From assembly GCA_017934595.1 (NCBI GenBank), contig JAGBJG010000008.1:723-64722 (forward strand): a stretch of DNA of 64,000 bases. Direction: 5' to 3'. Position 1 is the first letter of the stretch, and the number at the start of each line of letters is the position of its first letter. Below the pieces are notes generated by a model. The model saw only the letters and a list, made by a program, of their open reading frames with translations. It was not told the origin of the DNA and made no database searches. Shown here piece after piece: positions 37,356-45,233 of this stretch. The translations under genes and the position numbers were made by a program. This DNA comes from Bacilli bacterium (GTDB lineage: Bacteria > Bacillota_I > Bacilli_A > RF39 > UBA660).

Positions 37356-39404
37356 ATGGATAAAAATAGTAGTATAATTTTAGATTATCTAACTGATAGA
37401 GGCAAACCTATAAGTGCTGAAGGTATTGCTAATTATTTAAAGTTGGATAATTTTTTAGTTGAAAAGATATTATCTGAATTAAAATTAGAAAATAAAGTAG
37501 AAAAAAAAGGTAATAAGTATCGTGCTACTAATTATGTAACAGGTTTTGTAAAAATATCTAATAACGGTAAAATGTATATTAATCATGATAATAAAAAAAT
37601 ATTGTGTAATAATATTAGTGGATCTGAAATTACAGAGGGAGATTCTGTTTTATTTAAAATAACAAAAAAAGAAAAGAATTTTTGGTATGGTGAAATAGTT
37701 GGAATTGTTGATAAACGTATTAGAAATAATGTTGGTACTGTTATAAGTAGAGAAGGCGAACTTGTTATAAAAGGTAAAGATAAAAAATCCAATATATACA
37801 TTTATCCTAATTCTAAAGTTGTATCTGGTGATATAGTTAAATATAAACTAGGTGATAGAATAAGAGATTCTTTTTACGAAGGTGAAGTATTAGATGTAGT
37901 TGGCCGTGTAGATGAACCTAAAAGTGATATGACATCTATATTAGTAACTAATAATTTCCATGTTAAATTTCCAGAGGAAGTAATGGAAGAAGTTAAGAAA
38001 ATCGATGAAACAATTAGTCTAGAAAATAGACGCGATTTAAGAAATAATTTGATATTTACAATCGATGGTGATGATACTAAAGATATAGATGATGCAATCG
38101 AACTTGATAAACGTGATGATGGTACATATAAATTAGGTGTACATATAGCTGATGTTTCAAATTATGTTAAAATAGGTTCTGCATTAGATAATGAGGCATT
38201 CTTCCGTGGGACATCAGTATATCCACCATCTTCAGTAATACCAATGTTACCACATGAATTATCTTCTGGTGTATGTTCATTATTTGAAAATACAGATAGA
38301 TATGCACTTTCATGTGTAATGGAATTTTCATCAAGTGGAGACTTTATGGACTGTGAATTTTTTCCATCAGTTATTAATTCGAAAAAGAAAATGGCTTATT
38401 CAAAAGTAAATAGATTATTGGATACAGATACTCCATTTGGTTATGAAAAATTTGCGTCTGAATTAAAATTAATGAATGAATTTAAAAGTGTATTAAGAAA
38501 AAAAAGATTTGAAAATCAATCAATTAATTTTGATATTCCTAAATTAGGTGTTAAATTAAATGACTTAGGTACTCCTATATCCATTTATCAAGAGATACGT
38601 GGTGAAGCAGAAAAGTTAATTGAAGAATTTATGTTAATCACTAATATATGTACTGGTATGGTGGAAGATCGATATGGTTATGGCGCTTTCCGTACGCATG
38701 ATGTACCTGATATAGATAAACTTTATAAAGCAACATCAATTTTAGAAAAATTAGGCATTAAAATTCCTAAATATAATGATATAACAAAACACAAATTTAT
38801 TATTGAATTATCAAATAATATTAAAAATGGTTCATATAAAGATTTAGGTGAAGAATTATTATTGAAATGTATGTCTAGAGCTCAATATTCAAGAGTTAAT
38901 ACTGGACATTATGGTCTTAATTTTAAAAGATATGCACAGTTTACTTCTCCAATAAGAAGATATCCTGACTTAACTAATCATAGAGTAATAAAAGATATAT
39001 ATGGAATTGCAAATCCAAATTTTCCAACAGATAGAAAAGCATATTTAAATAATGTTTGTTCACACGCATCTATGCAAGAAAGAAATGCGGATGCTGCAGA
39101 AGCTATAATTAAGAAAATGAAAATGGCAGAGTTTATACAAGATGAAGTTGGTAAGGATTATGAAGGTCAAGTAGTAGATGTATATGCTAATTCTATAGAA
39201 GTTAAATTATCTAATGGTATTACTGGTACTATAGATCTAGGAGAAGGTAAAGATTTCAATAATTTTTCAGTACGAGCAAATGGTAAGACATATAGATATG
39301 GTCAAATGTTAAATGTTGCTATTGAAGATGTTTCGATAAATCCTGCAGTAATATCATTAGTAGATACAGATGTAAAAAGATTATCAAAAAAATATAAACA
39401 CTAA
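37356..39404 (+). CDS. rnr: Ribonuclease R
   Basis: RNB motifs TIDGDDTKDIDDA and FTSPIRRYPDL, with a C-terminal S1 domain. ATG 37356 lies behind GGGTGG. Confidence 0.9.
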   Translation: MDKNSSIILDYLTDRGKPISAEGIANYLKLDNFLVEKILSELKLENKVEKKGNKYRATNYVTGFVKISNNGKMYINHDNKKILCNNISGSEITEGDSVLFKITKKEKNFWYGEIVGIVDKRIRNNVGTVISREGELVIKGKDKKSNIYIYPNSKVVSGDIVKYKLGDRIRDSFYEGEVLDVVGRVDEPKSDMTSILVTNNFHVKFPEEVMEEVKKIDETISLENRRDLRNNLIFTIDGDDTKDIDDAIELDKRDDGTYKLGVHIADVSNYVKIGSALDNEAFFRGTSVYPPSSVIPMLPHELSSGVCSLFENTDRYALSCVMEFSSSGDFMDCEFFPSVINSKKKMAYSKVNRLLDTDTPFGYEKFASELKLMNEFKSVLRKKRFENQSINFDIPKLGVKLNDLGTPISIYQEIRGEAEKLIEEFMLITNICTGMVEDRYGYGAFRTHDVPDIDKLYKATSILEKLGIKIPKYNDITKHKFIIELSNNIKNGSYKDLGEELLLKCMSRAQYSRVNTGHYGLNFKRYAQFTSPIRRYPDLTNHRVIKDIYGIANPNFPTDRKAYLNNVCSHASMQERNADAAEAIIKKMKMAEFIQDEVGKDYEGQVVDVYANSIEVKLSNGITGTIDLGEGKDFNNFSVRANGKTYRYGQMLNVAIEDVSINPAVISLVDTDVKRLSKKYKH

Positions 39405-39429
39405 AAGCCACACATTGTGTGACTTTTTA
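39403..39429. terminator. Bidirectional terminator between rnr and DUF1016 copy 1
   Basis: aaaag-cCACAC-att-GTGTGa-cttttt. Confidence 0.6.
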
Positions 39430-40311
39430 ATTTACAATATACTCTCTTGATAATATTCTTTTATCAGAAGTATATTCTATAATAAATTCATTATTTTTTC
39501 TACATAGTATAATTCCAATAGTTTTATTATGATTTATCTTTTTTAAATTAATATCAATATAATTCATATATACTTGGACTTGTCCTATATCTTGTTTTCT
39601 TAGTTCATTTAATTTTAGTTCTATAACTATATAACAATTATATTCAATATTAAATAGTAATAAATCAATATAATTATATCTATCGCCCAGTTTAATAGGA
39701 TATTCATTTTTTATAAAAGTAAATCCAGTACCTAATTGTTCTAAGAATGAAGGTATATCTTCCATAATTAACATTTGTAATGCTTTTTCTTTTACTATAT
39801 CGACATTATTAGGATTATTTATAATAATAGGATTAGGAATATTATCAGGTAGAGTAGTAGTTTCATTATTAGATAGTTTTAATTTAGTATCTTTAGGTAA
39901 TCTTTCATATTCATTTGACTTAATTCTTTCTCTTAATTTATCACGACTAAGATTCAATGATATAGTTTTTTCAATATAATAATTAATTTCGTTAATATTT
40001 TTTATAGAAATAAGTTCTATCCAATGGCTCCATGTCAATTGGTGCGCGAATTGCGCACCTTTTTGAATTGACATATAAAATTGTCTCGTTCGTTTTAGTG
40101 ATGTGACATCATATCCTTTACCTAATTCTATTGTTAACTTAATGGAATATTGCTTTATAATACCTTCACCATAATGTTTGCCTGCATCATATAGTAATTT
40201 ACCAACATTGTATCTAGTTTCCAAGTTATGTTTGTTCTTAGAATAATCTTTAACTTTACTGTATACCTCGTTATTTATTAATTCATTTTTGATTAGTTCG
40301 TAATAATTCAT
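39427..40311 (-). CDS. yhcG: DUF1016/YhcG-family PD-(D/E)xK nuclease, copy 1
   Basis: LTWSHWIEL (N-domain motif). The C-terminal nuclease core is YIDLLLFNIEYNCYIVIELK (D...E-x-K) followed by QVQVYMNY. The start overlaps the end of copy 2. Confidence 0.8.
   Translation of the reverse strand: MNYYELIKNELINNEVYSKVKDYSKNKHNLETRYNVGKLLYDAGKHYGEGIIKQYSIKLTIELGKGYDVTSLKRTRQFYMSIQKGAQFAHQLTWSHWIELISIKNINEINYYIEKTISLNLSRDKLRERIKSNEYERLPKDTKLKLSNNETTTLPDNIPNPIIINNPNNVDIVKEKALQMLIMEDIPSFLEQLGTGFTFIKNEYPIKLGDRYNYIDLLLFNIEYNCYIVIELKLNELRKQDIGQVQVYMNYIDINLKKINHNKTIGIILCRKNNEFIIEYTSDKRILSREYIVN
39691..39939. repeat. About 249-bp near-identical block shared by copies 1 and 2 (partner 40584..40832)
   Basis: By eye about 10 mismatches in 249 nt at a constant offset of 893 nt, while the flanking gene parts are far more diverged. 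This is a mosaic, gene-conversion-like pattern. Confidence 0.8.
40032..40074. repeat. Intragenic GC-rich hairpin, copy 1
   Basis: + strand: ATGTCAATT GGTGCGC gaatt GCGCACC tttttg AATTGACAT. Inner stem 7 bp, outer stem 9 bp. Confidence 0.85.
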
Positions 40312-41219
40312 AAATTACCTCCTGTTAATTCATATTCCCTTACTGATATTCTTTCGTCAGATGAATATTCAATGACATATCTATTTTCTTTTTTACATAT
40401 AATAAGACCTATAGTTTTATTTTGATTTGATTCTTTTACATTTTTATCTATATAGTTAATATACATTTGAACTTGTCCTATATCCTGCTTTTTTAATTCA
40501 GTTACTTTTAATTCTATAACAACAAAACAATTGTATTTATAATTAAATAATAGTAAATCAACATAATTATATCTATTACCTAATTTAATAGGATACTCAT
40601 TTTTTATAAAAGTAAATCCAGTACCTAATTGTTCTAAGAATGAAGGTATATCTTCCATAATTAACATTTGTAATGCTTTTTCTTTTACTATATCAACATT
40701 ATTAGGATTCTTAATAATAATTGGGTTAGGAATATTATCAGGTAGAGTAGTAGTTTCATTATTAGATAGTTTTAATTTAGTATCTTCTGGTAATCTTTCA
40801 TATTCATTTGACTTGATTCTTTCTCTTAATTTTCTAACTGACAAATTTTGCGTTTCAACTAATCTAATGTAATAATTTATAATATTGATATTGTTAAGTG
40901 GGATAAGTTCGACATAATGAGACCAAGTTAATTTTCGCGACAATGTCGCGACATTTGAAAATAATAAATAAAACTGTCTGATTCTTAATAATGTTTTGTA
41001 ATCATACTTTTTATTAACTTCTTTAACTAATTTAATAGCATATTCCTTTATTAAATTTTCACCATATTTAGCCCTAGTTTCTCCTCCTTGGGCCTCAATA
41101 AGTAATTTACCTACATTATATCTAGTCTCTAAGTCATGCTTATTTTTAGAATAATCTTTAACTTTACTGTATACTTCGTTATTTATTAATTCAGTTTTTA
41201 TTAGTTCATAATAATTCAT
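40308..41219 (-). CDS. yhcG: DUF1016/YhcG-family PD-(D/E)xK nuclease, copy 2
   Basis: LTWSHYVEL; YVDLLLFNYKYNCFVVIELK; QVQMYINY. Confidence 0.8.
   Translation of the reverse strand: MNYYELIKTELINNEVYSKVKDYSKNKHDLETRYNVGKLLIEAQGGETRAKYGENLIKEYAIKLVKEVNKKYDYKTLLRIRQFYLLFSNVATLSRKLTWSHYVELIPLNNINIINYYIRLVETQNLSVRKLRERIKSNEYERLPEDTKLKLSNNETTTLPDNIPNPIIIKNPNNVDIVKEKALQMLIMEDIPSFLEQLGTGFTFIKNEYPIKLGNRYNYVDLLLFNYKYNCFVVIELKVTELKKQDIGQVQMYINYIDKNVKESNQNKTIGLIICKKENRYVIEYSSDERISVREYELTGGNL
40584..40832. repeat. Partner of the 249-bp block
   Basis: See 39691..39939. Confidence 0.8.
40935..40951. repeat. Intragenic GC-rich hairpin, copy 2 (homologous position)
   Basis: TCGCGAC aat GTCGCGA. Confidence 0.85.
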
Positions 41220-41225
41220 AATATA

Positions 41226-41264
41226 CCTCCTATAAACTTAATATGCCAAAACTTTTTTATATCC
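41226..41264. repeat. Left arm of the perfect 39-bp inverted repeat
   Basis: cctcctataaacttaatatgccaaaacttttttatatcc is the exact reverse complement of 43923..43961. It covers the SD and 5' region of DUF1016 copy 2. Confidence 0.9.
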
Positions 41265-41331
41265 TTTTTTATATAGTAAAAAACTTGTTTAATTTTAATA
41301 TTTAGTTTATAATTAATAATAGGGTGAGAAT

Positions 41332-43884
41332 ATGAATAAGAAGGGTTTTACATTAACTGAATTAATCGCGATATTAGTAATAATTTCAATTGTAGCTTTA
41401 ATAGCAGTACCAGCTGTAGTTAATTCAATTAAAAATAATAATCATGATTCATATAACGGTGTAGTAAATGATATTATATTGGCTTCAGAAACATATGCAG
41501 CTAATATGGGTGCTTCTATAGTTCAAGTATCAGTAGAAACTTTAAAACAAGCAGGATATTTATCACCTGATTTAAAAAATCCAATTGATAATTCTGATTT
41601 CAATGGTTGTGTATATATAGTTAATGGTGACCCTATATATAAAGAAGAAACTTGTAGTACAATTATAAAAAATGTAGACGGTGTAAGATTATATAAAGAT
41701 AGCATATTAAATGGATTAGATCCTGTATTAGATAAAGGATTAATTCCTGTTACAATCGGTGATGATGGAACAGTAACAAAAGCATCAATCGCGACTGAAT
41801 GGTATAATTATGGTGAAAAAAGATGGGCAAATGCCGTAATACTTAAGGGTAGTGATAATTATATTGAAGGTCAAACTATCCCTGAAAATAATATAGATGC
41901 ATATTTTGTATGGATACCTAAATTTAAATATAAATTATTTGATATGGGTAATTATACAACTTATTCTGGTACATCTAAACCAGATACTAGTAATGCGAAA
42001 ACATTAGATATAGTATTTGATCCAGTGAATACTACTGATTCAGATACTAGTTGTATGACTCCTCTAACTAGTGGGGCAAGTGGTAACTGTGCAGTAGGCA
42101 AGTATATGACTCATCCATCATTTATTACATTAGGAGTAAATGGATATTGGGTTGGTAAATATGAAACAAGTGGTACAACATCTGATTTAGATGTTAAACC
42201 TAATGTCTCATCTTTAAGAAGTACTACTGTAGGTGATTTCTTTACTTCAATGTATAACTATAATAGAGATTTAGACTCTCATATGATGAAAAATACAGAA
42301 TGGGGAGCAGTTGCATATTTATCCTTATCAAATTATGGCATAAATGGTGAAGTAAGAATTAATAATAGTTCGACTTATACAACTGGATGTGCGGCCACTG
42401 TAGCTAATACTACTAATGTTGGAGTTAGTCAATCAGATCATTCTGAAGGATATTATAATGGGTGTGAAAACGCGTATAATACAGCTACAGGATATTTAGC
42501 TTCAACTACTGGTAATATAACGGGTGTTTATGATATGTCTGGTGGTGCAAGGGAGTATTTAGCAGGATATATTAGTGGTGCAGGTGGTGGATTTACACCA
42601 TCAAGTTACAATGGCAAATATTATGATGTTTATGATTCTAATAGTTCAGTTAATTCTTATAATTACAGAATTTTAGGTGATGCGACTGGTGAAATGGGAC
42701 CATTTTATAAATATTCAGACAGTGATAATAATCAAAGAATTCATAGCAACTGGTTTGCTGATGGTTCTGATTTTATTGAATCTTCTGATTCATGGTTTGC
42801 ACGAGGCAACAATCATTATTATGGCGTGGTAGCAGGGCAAGCAGAATTTCATAAAGGTGCTGGCACAGATAGTAGTACTTTTAGTTCTCGTCTAGTTTTA
42901 GCTCCTGGTAGTACGGCTCGTGAGACTGCTTTAGGAACAACATGGACTTTTGATTATACAGGAAATGCACAAACATTTACTGTACCTGAAGATGGTAATT
43001 ATAAAATTGAACTTTGGGGAGCCCAAGGTGGAGCTTTATTTGATGAAGCTAATTATGGCGGTTATACTAGTGGAATATTGCCATTGAGAAATGAAAAATT
43101 ATATATTTATGTTGGCGCACAAGGTAATCAAGTTAGAAATGTAACTTTCAATGGTGGTGGATATGGTGGTGTCACGAATGGTATTAATAATAGTGGATCT
43201 GGCGCAGCTGGTGGTGGAGCCACTGATATCCGATTAGAAAATGGTGAATGGAATAATTTTAGCAGTTTAAAATCTAGAATTATGGTTGCTGCCGGAGGTG
43301 GTGGTTCAGCCTCAACTGCTTTATATTCGACAGCAGGACAGCATTCCTCAGCTGGTGGTCTTATTGGTTATAGTGGTGGTTATTATTCCGGCCATAGCTA
43401 TGTAATGCAGGAAGGTCAGGGTGCTTCACAAATAACAGGAGGCGCAGCAGGCGTTAATCATTATTCGTCGACTGGAACTAATTATGCTGGTACATTTGGT
43501 ATTGGTGGTAATAGTAATAGTACATCGGATAATAATGGTGCAGGTGGCGGCGGTGGCGGTTACTATGGTGGCGGCGCTGGTGGTGGTACTGCTGGCGGTG
43601 GCGGTGGCCAAGGTGGCGGCGGCGGTTCATCATTTATATCTGGATATTTTGGATGTAATGCTATCGCTGAATCTTCAACAGCATCTAATATAACACATAC
43701 AAATCAATCTAATCATTATAGTGGCAAAGTATTTACAAATGGTATAATGATAGATGGTGCAGGATGTAATTGGTCTACTGGTAGTGCTACTAACTGTGGC
43801 ACCAATCAACCACAACCTGATGGTACTATGGCAGTTGGTCATTCTGGTAATGGTTATGCTAAAATAACATTGATGTCATATTAA
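41332..43884 (+). CDS. Large pilin-leader protein: prepilin-type N-terminus, FGE-sulfatase (SUMF1)-like domain, and a glycine-rich (polyglycine) C-terminal domain
   Basis: MNKKGFTLTELIAILVIISIVALIA (G|FTLTE). NTEWGAVAYL, GVYDMSGGAREYLAGY and WFARGN resemble FGE-sulfatase motifs. YKIELWGAQGG, LYIYVGAQG, GGGATDIRL, GAGGGGGGYYGGGAGGGTAGGGGGQGGGGGSSF and GNGYAKITL mark the Gly-rich domain. Confidence 0.85.
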   Translation: MNKKGFTLTELIAILVIISIVALIAVPAVVNSIKNNNHDSYNGVVNDIILASETYAANMGASIVQVSVETLKQAGYLSPDLKNPIDNSDFNGCVYIVNGDPIYKEETCSTIIKNVDGVRLYKDSILNGLDPVLDKGLIPVTIGDDGTVTKASIATEWYNYGEKRWANAVILKGSDNYIEGQTIPENNIDAYFVWIPKFKYKLFDMGNYTTYSGTSKPDTSNAKTLDIVFDPVNTTDSDTSCMTPLTSGASGNCAVGKYMTHPSFITLGVNGYWVGKYETSGTTSDLDVKPNVSSLRSTTVGDFFTSMYNYNRDLDSHMMKNTEWGAVAYLSLSNYGINGEVRINNSSTYTTGCAATVANTTNVGVSQSDHSEGYYNGCENAYNTATGYLASTTGNITGVYDMSGGAREYLAGYISGAGGGFTPSSYNGKYYDVYDSNSSVNSYNYRILGDATGEMGPFYKYSDSDNNQRIHSNWFADGSDFIESSDSWFARGNNHYYGVVAGQAEFHKGAGTDSSTFSSRLVLAPGSTARETALGTTWTFDYTGNAQTFTVPEDGNYKIELWGAQGGALFDEANYGGYTSGILPLRNEKLYIYVGAQGNQVRNVTFNGGGYGGVTNGINNSGSGAAGGGATDIRLENGEWNNFSSLKSRIMVAAGGGGSASTALYSTAGQHSSAGGLIGYSGGYYSGHSYVMQEGQGASQITGGAAGVNHYSSTGTNYAGTFGIGGNSNSTSDNNGAGGGGGGYYGGGAGGGTAGGGGGQGGGGGSSFISGYFGCNAIAESSTASNITHTNQSNHYSGKVFTNGIMIDGAGCNWSTGSATNCGTNQPQPDGTMAVGHSGNGYAKITLMSY

Positions 43885-43912
43885 GATATAAGGAAACTTA
43901 TATCTTTTTTTT
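43883..43912 (+). terminator. Strong rho-independent terminator
   Basis: aagatataag-gaaa-cttatatctt followed by T8. Confidence 0.85.
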
Positions 43913-43922
43913 GGAAAAAAGA

Positions 43923-43961
43923 GGATATAAAAAAGTTTTGGCATATTAAGTTTATAGGAGG
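43923..43961. repeat. Right arm of the perfect 39-bp inverted repeat
   Basis: ggatataaaaaagttttggcatattaagtttataggagg; covers the SD and 5' region of DUF1016 copy 3. Confidence 0.9.
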
Positions 43962-43967
43962 TGAATT

Positions 43968-44861
43968 ATGAATTATTATGATGAGATAAAAGAAAGATTA
44001 ATTAAAAGCGAAATATATGATAAAGCAAAAGACTATGCGAAAGATAGAAATAAAGTTAATGTATACTATGAAATAGGTAAGTTATTAAGCGAAGCAGGTA
44101 AGGAGTATGGCAAAAATATAATTAAACAATATTCAGAAAAATTAATGATTGAAGTGGGTAAAAAATATAATGAAAGAAATTTGAGATATATGAGGCAATT
44201 TTATGAAGTGTTTTCAGGCACAAAATGGAACGCATTGCGTTCCAAATTGAGTTGGAGCCACTATAGAATTGTTTTATCACTTAAAAATACTGATGAAATA
44301 ATATATTATTTAACAGAATGCGAAAATAGGAATTTAACGTACAGACAATTGGACGAATTAGTTAGATGTGGTTATTATAATAGGTTAAGTGATAATACTA
44401 AAAGTAAATTAGCAATAGAAGATAAATTGGGAATAAATGATTTAATACCCAATCCTATAATTATAAAAAATGATTTGTTAACTGAAAATATATCTGAATA
44501 TGCACTTAAACAGATGATATTAAATAATTTGGATGATTTTTTAAAACAACTAGGATATGGATATTCTTATGTTGGTAATGAATATAGAATTAAGATAGGT
44601 GATAGATATAATTATATTGATTTACTACTATATAATATAGAATTTAATTGTTATGTTGTAGTTGAGCTTAAGATAACTGAATTTAAAAAAGAACATATCG
44701 GACAAGTTTTAGTATATATGAATTATATAGATGAACATCTAAAGAAGATTAATCAAGATAAGACAATAGGTATAATCATATGTAAAGAAGATAATGAGTA
44801 TGTTATTAAGTATTGTTTTGATGATAGAATTATAGTAAGAAAATATGAATTGATAGGATGA
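43968..44861 (+). CDS. yhcG: DUF1016/YhcG-family PD-(D/E)xK nuclease, copy 3 (more diverged)
   Basis: LSWSHYRIVL; YIDLLLYNIEFNCYVVVELK; QVLVYMNY. Confidence 0.8.
   Translation: MNYYDEIKERLIKSEIYDKAKDYAKDRNKVNVYYEIGKLLSEAGKEYGKNIIKQYSEKLMIEVGKKYNERNLRYMRQFYEVFSGTKWNALRSKLSWSHYRIVLSLKNTDEIIYYLTECENRNLTYRQLDELVRCGYYNRLSDNTKSKLAIEDKLGINDLIPNPIIIKNDLLTENISEYALKQMILNNLDDFLKQLGYGYSYVGNEYRIKIGDRYNYIDLLLYNIEFNCYVVVELKITEFKKEHIGQVLVYMNYIDEHLKKINQDKTIGIIICKEDNEYVIKYCFDDRIIVRKYELIG
44227..44243. repeat. Intragenic GC-rich hairpin, copy 3 (homologous position)
   Basis: GGAACGC att GCGTTCC. Confidence 0.85.
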
Positions 44862-44863
44862 GT

Positions 44864-44944
44864 TTTTATGAATTGTTTTCGATTGTAAAATTGTACCCAC
44901 TGGGTGTAAATTTGAGTTGGAGTTATTATAGAGAATTATTATAA
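44864..44944 (+). pseudogene. 26-codon fragment of a fourth DUF1016 gene (hairpin-containing segment only)
   Basis: FYELFSIVKLYPLGVNLSWSYYRELL* is colinear with copy 3 FYEVFSGTKWNALRSKLSWSHYRIVL. The nucleotide anchors ttttatgaa, tgttttc and ttgagttggag are shared. Confidence 0.65.
44892..44908. repeat. Hairpin in the DUF1016 fragment (homologous position)
   Basis: TGTACCC act GGGTGTA: 7 pairs if two G.U pairs are allowed, which holds only for sense-strand RNA. Confidence 0.6.
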
Positions 44945-44960
44945 TAAAAAAATGATGTTA

Positions 44961-45233
44961 TTACATCATTTGATAAGTAGAATTATTATAGTTAGTATTA
45001 GATATCATAGCTTCTAAATTACTAACTCTTTTTTCTAATGCATTAATTTGATTATATAAACTGTTATTATCTACACCTGTATAACTAGATGTTGTTTGCA
45101 TAATAGTATTCATAGGTTGATTACTCATATCCATATTCATTGGCATATTATAAGCCATAGGCATCATAGGCATTACTGGTCCCATATAAGGCATTCCCAT
45201 AGGCATTGAATTGCAATCTCTATCTTTATTCAT
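44961..45233 (-). CDS. Met/Pro-rich small protein with a C-terminal coiled-coil-like segment
   Basis: 90 aa. The N-terminal half is SMPMGMPYMGPVMPMMPMAYNMPMNMDM. A hairpin terminator (aaatgatgt-aat-aacatcatt) lies downstream on the minus strand. Confidence 0.6.
   Translation of the reverse strand: MNKDRDCNSMPMGMPYMGPVMPMMPMAYNMPMNMDMSNQPMNTIMQTTSSYTGVDNNSLYNQINALEKRVSNLEAMISNTNYNNSTYQMM

Follow-up and report, generated by a model that had tools for sequence, protein, structure and literature searches.

A covarying palindrome within an exchangeable cassette of DUF1016/YhcG nuclease genes, from a Bacilli island to Escherichia coli

Organization of the DUF1016 locus

The window, by which we mean the whole 64-kb stretch analysed here (a Bacilli bacterium, GenBank assembly GCA_017934595.1, contig JAGBJG010000008.1, positions 723 to 64,722), contains three genes of the DUF1016/YhcG family, a family of PD-(D/E)xK nucleases, and a relic of a fourth. 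Copy 1 (39427-40311, 294 aa) and copy 2 (40308-41219, 303 aa) lie on the minus strand; on the plus strand follow a gene for an 850-aa protein with a prepilin leader (41332-43884), copy 3 (43968-44861, 297 aa) and the relic, 26 codons and a stop (44864-44944, reading FYELFSIVKLYPLGVNLSWSYYRELL up to the stop codon). This layout had been proposed by the original prediction, a reading of the letters alone, and the open reading frame (ORF) calls reproduce it to the nucleotide. The stop of copy 2 and the start of copy 1 overlap by 4 nt, so these two genes probably form one operon. The copy 3 protein is about 49% identical to those of copies 1 and 2.

All three proteins match both Pfam domains of the family, DUF1016_N (PF17761) at 78.8-91.6 bits (cut-off 32.8) and YhcG_C (PF06250) at 114-124 bits (cut-off 32.5), with E-values of 1e-22 to 1e-36 over the two domains. 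All three copies retain E203, D216, E231, L232 and K233 (numbered as in copy 1), which constitute the E...D...E(I/L/V)K catalytic motif described for DUF1016/YhcG (Kosinski 2005, PMC1189080), so that the earlier identification of the genes as DUF1016 PD-(D/E)xK nucleases stands. The profile HMMs of the PADLOC system PDC-S02 also match each copy, with E-values from 4e-57 (copy 1) to 5e-67. Structure comparison places the nuclease domain nearest EndoMS/NucS, Cas4 and MGME1; an earlier fold recognition study arrived at the archaeal Holliday-junction resolvases (PMC1189080).

A perfect GC-rich palindrome is found at one position of the codon alignment in each gene, just 5' of a conserved L-(S/T)-W-S-H motif, and its sequence differs from copy to copy. 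It is GGTGCGC-AATTC-GCGCACC in copy 1 (gene strand, 7-bp arms; 40041-40059, minus strand; 63.7 bits with our covariance model), TCGCGAC-ATT-GTCGCGA in copy 2 (40935-40951, minus strand; 59.7 bits) and TGGAACGC-ATT-GCGTTCCA in copy 3 (8-bp arms; 44226-44244, plus strand), where it encodes W87-S92. The same covariance model recognizes TTGTACCC-ACT-GGGTGTAA in the relic (44891-44909, plus strand; eight pairs including two G.T). The model had been trained on other genes, not on the relic, which it nevertheless detects at 40.4 bits (E 3e-6) as the sole match in the window besides the three genes. The 44864-44944 segment, first described as a silent fragment holding only the hairpin, is thus a true remnant of a fourth copy that has kept only the palindrome segment.

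The palindrome across the family

For comparison we assembled 80 loci of uncultured gut and rumen Bacilli with 129 DUF1016 ORFs. Perfect arms of at least 7 bp occur at the site in 91 of these ORFs; 892 kb of distant flanking sequence yielded 44 hairpins of this kind. When 99 distinct 57-nt segments were aligned, 94.6% of the cells were paired, compared with 52.9% after shuffling and 26-47% in slid registers, and all eight palindrome pairs showed compensatory changes on both sides. The 99 genes contain 79 different palindromes, and the encoded residues change accordingly (VSTLSTQ, GATLWHQ, VAPLVPQ, WQTLSAK and others).

The element is not confined to this clade. It is present at the homologous site in 16 of 18 genes from Proteobacteria, Bacteroidota, Cyanobacteria, Actinobacteria, Firmicutes and Fusobacteria, 13 of them with perfect arms of 6-15 bp and three more with 11-15-bp arms carrying two mismatches each. 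In yhcG of E. coli K-12 (NC_000913.3, 3367827-3368954; 9828-10955 of our locus L084), nucleotides 378-410 of the gene form a perfect 33-nt palindrome with 15-bp arms, AAAGATTTGGCAGAC-GCT-GTCTGCCAAATCTTT. It is the third and longest of three tandem palindromes about 39 nt apart that have the core CAGAC-N3-GTCTG in common; in other E. coli strains the first is perfect too, ATTCGCCAGAC-AGT-GTCTGGCGAAT. The palindrome is therefore characteristic of the family across these phyla, and the compensatory substitutions that maintain it change the amino acids encoded there.

The constraint on it looks to act at the DNA level. Among the cells that depart from Watson-Crick pairing, 21 are A.C, 11 are G.T and 32 are of transversion type, so that G.U pairs are not favoured on either strand. 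The symmetry moreover runs on into the loop: 88 of the 99 sequences have A as loop base 1 (a third codon position), compared with 43% A at comparable codon positions in other parts of these genes, and in 84 of the 99 this A is complementary to loop base 3, leaving only the central base free. These two features, the indifference to G.U and the symmetric loop, argue for a dyad symmetry of the DNA itself, which could be due to a protein that binds a symmetric site, to cruciform formation or to templated self-correction.

An RNA-level signal is one alternative, either an antisense or convergent intrinsic terminator that protects the expression of a toxic nuclease or a regulatory hairpin in the mRNA. 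In the window and in related low-GC Bacilli an A5 run precedes the stem, that is, T5 on the opposite strand, which makes a consensus intrinsic terminator (GC-rich stem and T-run) on the antisense strand; on the plus strand, for instance, the copy 1 palindrome reads as eight pairs (G-T allowed) followed by TTTTT. The window has 8 antisense terminator-like sites where 1.6 are expected; in the related locus L015 the figures are 9 and 0.1. Short relics of the gene retain the A-run and sit between convergent genes. An antisense RNA has also been reported at the 5' end of E. coli yhcG, the stationary-phase transcript G0-10703, which overlaps the 5' untranslated region by 128 bp (PMC7967276). The terminator signature, however, is limited to this clade: the T-run is absent from the examples read in Proteobacteria, Actinobacteria, Cyanobacteria and Clostridium, and for that reason an antisense terminator does not explain the family-wide palindrome. 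Neither the lack of preference for G.U pairs nor a symmetry extending to loop bases, which a hairpin does not need, fits an RNA element, and Rfam covariance models gave no match in the window region and chance-level matches only in E. coli yhcG. We consider an RNA-level role decidedly unlikely. Two specific variants were dropped outright: a helix in the sense-strand mRNA, which shows no tolerance of G.U, and a -1 frameshift site made of the A-run and the hairpin, in which the run abuts the stem with no spacer and no alternative frame is conserved.

The palindrome might also be functionless, an old quasi-palindrome in a stretch that codes for a tolerant loop, where template-switch correction during replication maintains perfect arms by copying a change in either one into its partner. 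Templated correction predicts what is observed, namely that only Watson-Crick pairs are kept and that symmetry reaches the centre. The encoded residues do fall in a connection between helices (W87-S92 of copy 3, between helices 69-83 and 96-102 of an AlphaFold model), and the stretch has expanded to three units in E. coli. Yet six phyla have kept the element at one codon position despite the amino-acid changes this forces, perfect copies persist in relics with stop codons in their flanks, and the enrichment over background is very large. We give this neutral explanation little credence.

An exchangeable cassette, its relics and gene conversion

Copies 1 and 2 are mosaics of segments of different age. 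Their first 120 nt are identical at 107 positions, a similarity that had been read as part of the mosaic; in codons 1-37, however, nonsynonymous divergence (dN) is 0.02 and synonymous divergence (dS) 0.91, the mark of an old segment under protein-level constraint, not of a recent exchange. Codons 38-130 (dS 1.07, dN 0.46) have diverged as far from each other as from copy 3, and the strong divergence noticed by eye around the hairpin amounts to about 60-65% identity, no closer than to copy 3. Codons 131-213 stand apart with dS 0.16 and dN 0.02, and codons 214-300 return to dS 0.90 and dN 0.20. The low-dS segment corresponds to a block at 39691-39939 in copy 1 (minus strand) that differs from 40584-40832 in copy 2 at 9 of 249 bp (roughly ten had been estimated) and includes an exact run of 98 nt. 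Given a dS of 0.16 here and of about 1 elsewhere, copies 1 and 2 are old paralogues that carry one recent conversion tract of about 250 bp.

Conversion between the two copies is still active in the population. Another sample's contig matches the window over 20,894 nt except for five single-nucleotide differences, all in a patch of copy 1 at 39802-39832 (minus strand) inside the conversion tract, and at all five positions the other sample's copy 1 equals copy 2. The patch is also the reason why an exact look-up of the window's copy 1 protein returned no record. We conclude that the mosaic arises by ordinary homologous recombination between tandem copies.

The copy 1/copy 2 mosaic is one instance of a general architecture. 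From the related loci we took pairs of genes solely on the basis of 3' halves at least 90% identical (n=20). Fourteen of the 20 pairs diverge, with the differences concentrated at gene nt 196-375, while nt 1-180 and 406-450 remain similar. Outside the hairpin region many pairs reach 90-96% identity, and nonetheless their palindromes are unrelated; in a tandem pair of locus L030 the identity is 100% over 470 nt and drops to about 55% in the variable segment. The same replacement pattern is seen in the tandem pairs of L004, L011 and L018, between L015 and L034 of one metagenome-assembled genome (MAG), and between genomes. In E. coli, where yhcG was found in 4,465 of 5,426 complete genomes (3,349 with at least 80% of the gene covered), the allele of strain JML285 is about 65% identical at nt 240-420 and 95-100% identical over the rest, with different perfect palindromes. 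A variable cassette of about 180 nt around the palindrome is thus exchanged between otherwise near-identical genes. In copy 3 it corresponds approximately to gene nt 196-375 (aa 66-125; 44163-44342, plus strand) and spans, besides the palindrome, a helix that our alignment pairs with the recognition helix of ParB, the LSWSHY helix and the next helix after it.

Partial copies of the cassette accompany the genes. Across the 80 loci the covariance model found 163 palindrome copies, every one on the gene strand, and more than 30 of them lie outside intact genes, mostly right downstream of the last gene copy. Some of these relics are 5' gene fragments, others are short units of A5, palindrome and AATTRAC with stop-filled flanks, and some form arrays of 3-7 units at a spacing of 35-200 nt in L015 and L034. 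These arrays (L015 8920-9450 and L034 8880-9140, two contigs of MAG CAKOXW01) consist of A5 plus an 8-3-8 palindrome plus AATTRAC; the core CGAC-N3-GTCG recurs in most units, and the neighbouring gene has a palindrome different from all of them. A further product of rearrangement is a class of 402-404-aa proteins (P0003, P0006, P0008 and P0040; one cluster has 328 members) in which a 5' module of aa 1 to about 107 with one palindrome is fused in frame to a whole gene with another, the join reading ...LKNIDEI|KEKLL. Such proteins suggest that the NIDEINYY segment behind the hairpin and the MNYYDEIK start of a gene have repeatedly recombined unequally.

The palindrome might itself start these exchanges. 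It could form a hairpin or cruciform or stall replication and be cut, possibly by the junction-resolvase-like nuclease encoded around it, and repair of the break from another copy or a relic would replace the cassette, as in HO/MAT switching or at the G-quadruplex of Neisseria pilE. Several findings are in keeping with a recombination initiator: the variable cassette encloses the palindrome, partial copies that keep it adjoin the genes, the constraint is on DNA, and the nuclease domain is nearest NucS and the archaeal Holliday-junction resolvases (PMC1189080). In several E. coli genomes yhcG breaks off precisely at the 3' arm of its 33-nt palindrome (query nt 406), and in one an 80-nt deletion takes out two palindromes, so that this palindrome may be an insertion/deletion hotspot; in strain Ec387 (L183, 2501-3302), the one truncation examined, a small transposase gene follows. 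Against initiation, 8-bp arms such as those in the window are short for cruciform extrusion, the arrangement is stable in this population, and the relics often have no homology on both sides of the palindrome. We regard it as unlikely, and it is compatible with the binding-site model developed below, not exclusive of it.

Arrangement of the copies

The inverted gene copies, the blocks of identity alternating with variable blocks and the partial cassette had suggested a shufflon, hsdS-type or silent-cassette variation system. Such a programmed switch of phase or specificity would be driven from elsewhere in the genome by a site-specific recombinase or reverse transcriptase, with frequent inversion or recombination of the copies. 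The layout at 39.4-45.0 kb does combine copies in inverse orientation with a partial one, and conserved blocks with variable ones; tyrosine recombinases adjoin DUF1016 genes on several plasmids; and DUF1016 genes are enriched beside inversion targets (PMC9881135). In that survey, however, they are neighbours of the inverted genes and not targets, and they adjoin them because they are carried in type I restriction-modification (R-M) and BREX loci (PMC9881135).

The locus itself speaks against a switch. As noted at the outset for the visible sequence, no recombinase or reverse transcriptase is present among the called genes (by their Pfam labels) within about 10 kb on either side. No near-identical inverted repeats suited to crossover were found: the arms formed by the inverted copies are 73-79% complementary, and their longest exact matches are 24 and 14 nt. 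Copies 1-3 differ at all base types, and no reverse transcriptase like that of a diversity-generating retroelement lies within about 10 kb. A comparison across samples returned a single arrangement on all 6-7 metagenome contigs (assemblies, not long reads, which may miss rare variants) that have the exact copy 2 or copy 3 protein. Tandem copies in the 80 related loci invariably share a strand. Programmed variation is therefore highly improbable, and the switch mechanism of the original prediction is largely unsupported. Its cassette idea is right on an evolutionary scale: conserved blocks surround a variable one, non-expressed partial copies stand beside full genes (44864-44944 here and the more than 30 relics elsewhere), cassettes have been replaced in the course of evolution, and one conversion event between full copies separates two samples.

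A ParB-like N-terminal domain and a proposed mechanism

A sequence search of the PDB yielded no solved DUF1016 structure. Copy 3 was modelled with AlphaFold; the full-length model has a mean pLDDT of 77.5, and the N-terminal domain alone reaches a pLDDT of 89.3 and a pTM of 0.84. When this domain was compared with the PDB by Foldseek, the top 25 matches were all DNA-binding domains of ParB, Spo0J or Noc, at weak E-values of 0.6-4; several of these structures are in complex with their palindromic sites, such as 4umk (probability 0.99, rmsd 3.0 over 105 columns) and 6y93 (TM-score 0.73 on the target). A profile search of the PDB ranked Spo0J second-best (E 0.057, weak) and aligned LSWSHYRxLL of DUF1016 with LSMGHGRTLL. 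Pfam HTH_ParB, at 16.2 bits against a cut-off of 22.6, matched only sub-threshold; such matches occur in copy 3 and 9 of 50 homologues. The N-terminal CTPase domain of ParB (ParBc) had no match, and the helical domain begins at residue 3. These matches suggest that the N-terminal domain is a helix-turn-helix domain of the ParB/Noc type and that the palindrome sits in the cassette together with a putative recognition helix and the two helices that come next.

In our best model, which we put forward tentatively and at slightly less than even chances, the cassette couples a ParB-like reader to its own palindromic binding site. The palindrome would be the dimer-binding site of the protein encoded around it, comparable to parS inside spo0J. 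Reader and site, lying within about 200 bp, would be inherited and exchanged as one unit, and paralogues could thereby keep specificities of their own even as the remainder of the gene is homogenised. Binding might repress a potentially toxic nuclease or tether the nuclease at its own gene, and the relics would stem from unequal recombination between tandem copies. The shared cores, CAGAC-N3-GTCTG in E. coli and CGAC-N3-GTCG in the relic array of L015, fit several sites per protein.

A number of observations weigh against this model. All three ParB signals are under normal significance (Foldseek E 0.6-4; HMM E 0.01-0.06). Arms that vary from 6 to 15 bp among phyla fit a structure-forming element better than a fixed site. 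R76, Q77, F78 and Y79 of the putative recognition helix are invariant between copies with different palindromes, and the relic palindromes differ from that of the adjacent intact gene. In low-GC Bacilli the element fits an antisense intrinsic terminator as well. Linkage alone, finally, yields co-variation of protein and palindrome, and co-variation is therefore no proof of recognition.

A more comprehensive statement of the binding-site model is that DUF1016/YhcG is self-referential, with a ParB-like reader and the palindrome it recognises moving together in one exchangeable cassette of about 180 nt, and with the palindrome serving as an operator, a cleavage or recombination site, or both. We consider this possible but doubtful.

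The island and its genomic context

The DUF1016 block is an insertion of about 5.5 kb (~39428 to 44950) between rnr and a 90-aa Met/Pro-rich ORF, orf90 (44961-45233, minus strand, MPMGMPYMGPVMPMMPMAYNMPMNMDM...), which matches no family and is conserved in the related species described next (L104, L105). A related species with the same gene order as the window (PRK 79%, Gap 76% and TrmB 80% identical) joins rnr directly to orf90: a single bidirectional terminator follows rnr, then at once the stop of orf90, and the 5.5-kb block is missing. In the window a bidirectional terminator-like hairpin in the gap between rnr and copy 1 (39403-39427) marks the left edge of the insert, and a hairpin between the relic and the convergent orf90 (44934-44987) marks the right. 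Neither an integrase nor flanking repeats were seen at the block, and the 64-kb window contains no tRNA or tmRNA gene. An island had been suspected from the position downstream of rnr, where smpB/ssrA is often found; the insertion is real, and smpB/ssrA is absent from the relative's site too.

The 850-aa gene between copies 2 and 3 is cargo of the island, unrelated to DUF1016 and not a conserved partner of it. Its product has the prepilin methylation motif (N_methyl) in a ComGC-like leader, with a sub-threshold match to ComGC, and a C-terminal ALK/LTK glycine-rich domain (ALK_LTK_GRD). The pilin-leader protein is not a conserved neighbour in the 80 related DUF1016 loci, none of which is syntenic with the window. 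The G+C content of the gene rises to 41% in a genome of 25%, with GGN-rich repeats, and two short-read contigs (L002, L003) end just past it, 35 nt upstream of copy 3. It is bracketed by a 142-nt inverted repeat (41141-41282 versus 43905-44046, 79% complementary) made up of the 5' ends of copies 2 and 3 and about 63 nt upstream of each, which probably reflects homologous promoter regions.

Among 56 related loci, comEC, the gene of the DNA-uptake channel, lies directly upstream of the DUF1016 array in 21 (among them L037, L049, L055, L058, L061, L063, L064, L068, L070, L073 and L074), and assorted housekeeping genes lie downstream of the arrays. A link with DNA uptake is possible in view of this adjacency and of the ComGC-like leader between the window copies. 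On plasmids the genes occur within type I R-M operons or near tyrosine recombinases. DUF1016 adjoins a tyrosine recombinase or integrase on IncHI1B/IncP, Legionella, Ilyobacter and Hymenobacter plasmids (L093, L099, L101, L091, L092) and lies between hsdM, hsdS and hsdR genes in Methylobacter, Aeromonas and Nostoc. Scans of viral contigs gave one locus with a YhcG query and none with the three-copy alignment.

DUF1016/YhcG is among the commonest uncharacterised nuclease families, occurring in E. coli K-12, in type I R-M operons, on plasmids and in integrative and conjugative elements, and no mechanism has been described for it. The literature we found on DUF1016, YhcG, PDC-S02, PF06250 and COG4804 describes neither the palindrome nor the cassette nor the ParB-like N-terminal domain, and it includes no experimental report of phage protection by PDC-S02; an embedded co-varying palindrome, an exchangeable cassette and a ParB-like domain thus appear undescribed so far. 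Together they offer concrete handles on the family that can be tested in E. coli K-12. The palindrome is also a clear case of DNA-level selection overriding protein sequence within a gene, which gene finders and dN/dS scans would misread. At the locus itself, a supposed phase-variation system is replaced by a small inserted island of paralogues under ordinary gene conversion. If the self-referential reading is true, specificity and target travel jointly by recombination between paralogues and relic cassettes.

Comparison with known systems

The closest parallel to the proposed reader and site is with ParB/Spo0J and parS, and with Noc and its binding site (NBS). One of the parS sites of Bacillus subtilis is said, in work by Lin and Grossman from 1998, to lie inside the spo0J coding sequence. 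The helical helix-turn-helix of these proteins is the best structural match to the DUF1016 N-terminal domain, the motif LSxGH(A/G)RxLL is common to both, the palindromes are of similar size (16-19 bp), and in spo0J as in DUF1016 the site is embedded in the coding sequence for the protein presumed to bind it, where that protein is tolerant of change. Unlike ParB, DUF1016 has no N-terminal CTPase domain and is partnered with a PD-(D/E)xK nuclease, and its similarity remains under family thresholds. The putative site of DUF1016 varies between paralogues, where parS is conserved.

Type I hsdS genes resemble DUF1016 in that recombination between copies exchanges a variable specificity segment within a conserved frame and partial copies lie close by, and DUF1016 genes are often found within type I R-M operons. 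In contrast to the hsdS switches, the window locus has no invertase and no inverted-repeat crossover sites; exchange in DUF1016 is on evolutionary and population scales only, and the variable segment contains a palindrome. With Neisseria pilE/pilS and yeast MAT/HO the family has in common an expressed gene beside promoterless partial copies, a variable region with conserved flanks, and a special DNA structure in or beside the converted region. The DUF1016 product, however, is a cytoplasmic nuclease and not a surface antigen like PilE, its exchange amounts to cassette replacement on an evolutionary scale and one conversion between full copies, and conversion here homogenises (copy 1 toward copy 2) instead of diversifying.

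In phage lambda, the iterons of ori-lambda lie inside the O gene, whose protein binds them. These are repeated dyad sites in a stretch that codes for a linker, as are the three tandem palindromes with one core in E. coli yhcG; O is a replication initiator, whereas DUF1016 is a nuclease with no sign of an origin at its genes. The relation to PDC-S02 of PADLOC and to Pfam DUF1016 (YhcG) is one of direct membership: the three copies of the window belong to these families, and PDC-S02 is a candidate single-gene phage defence system.

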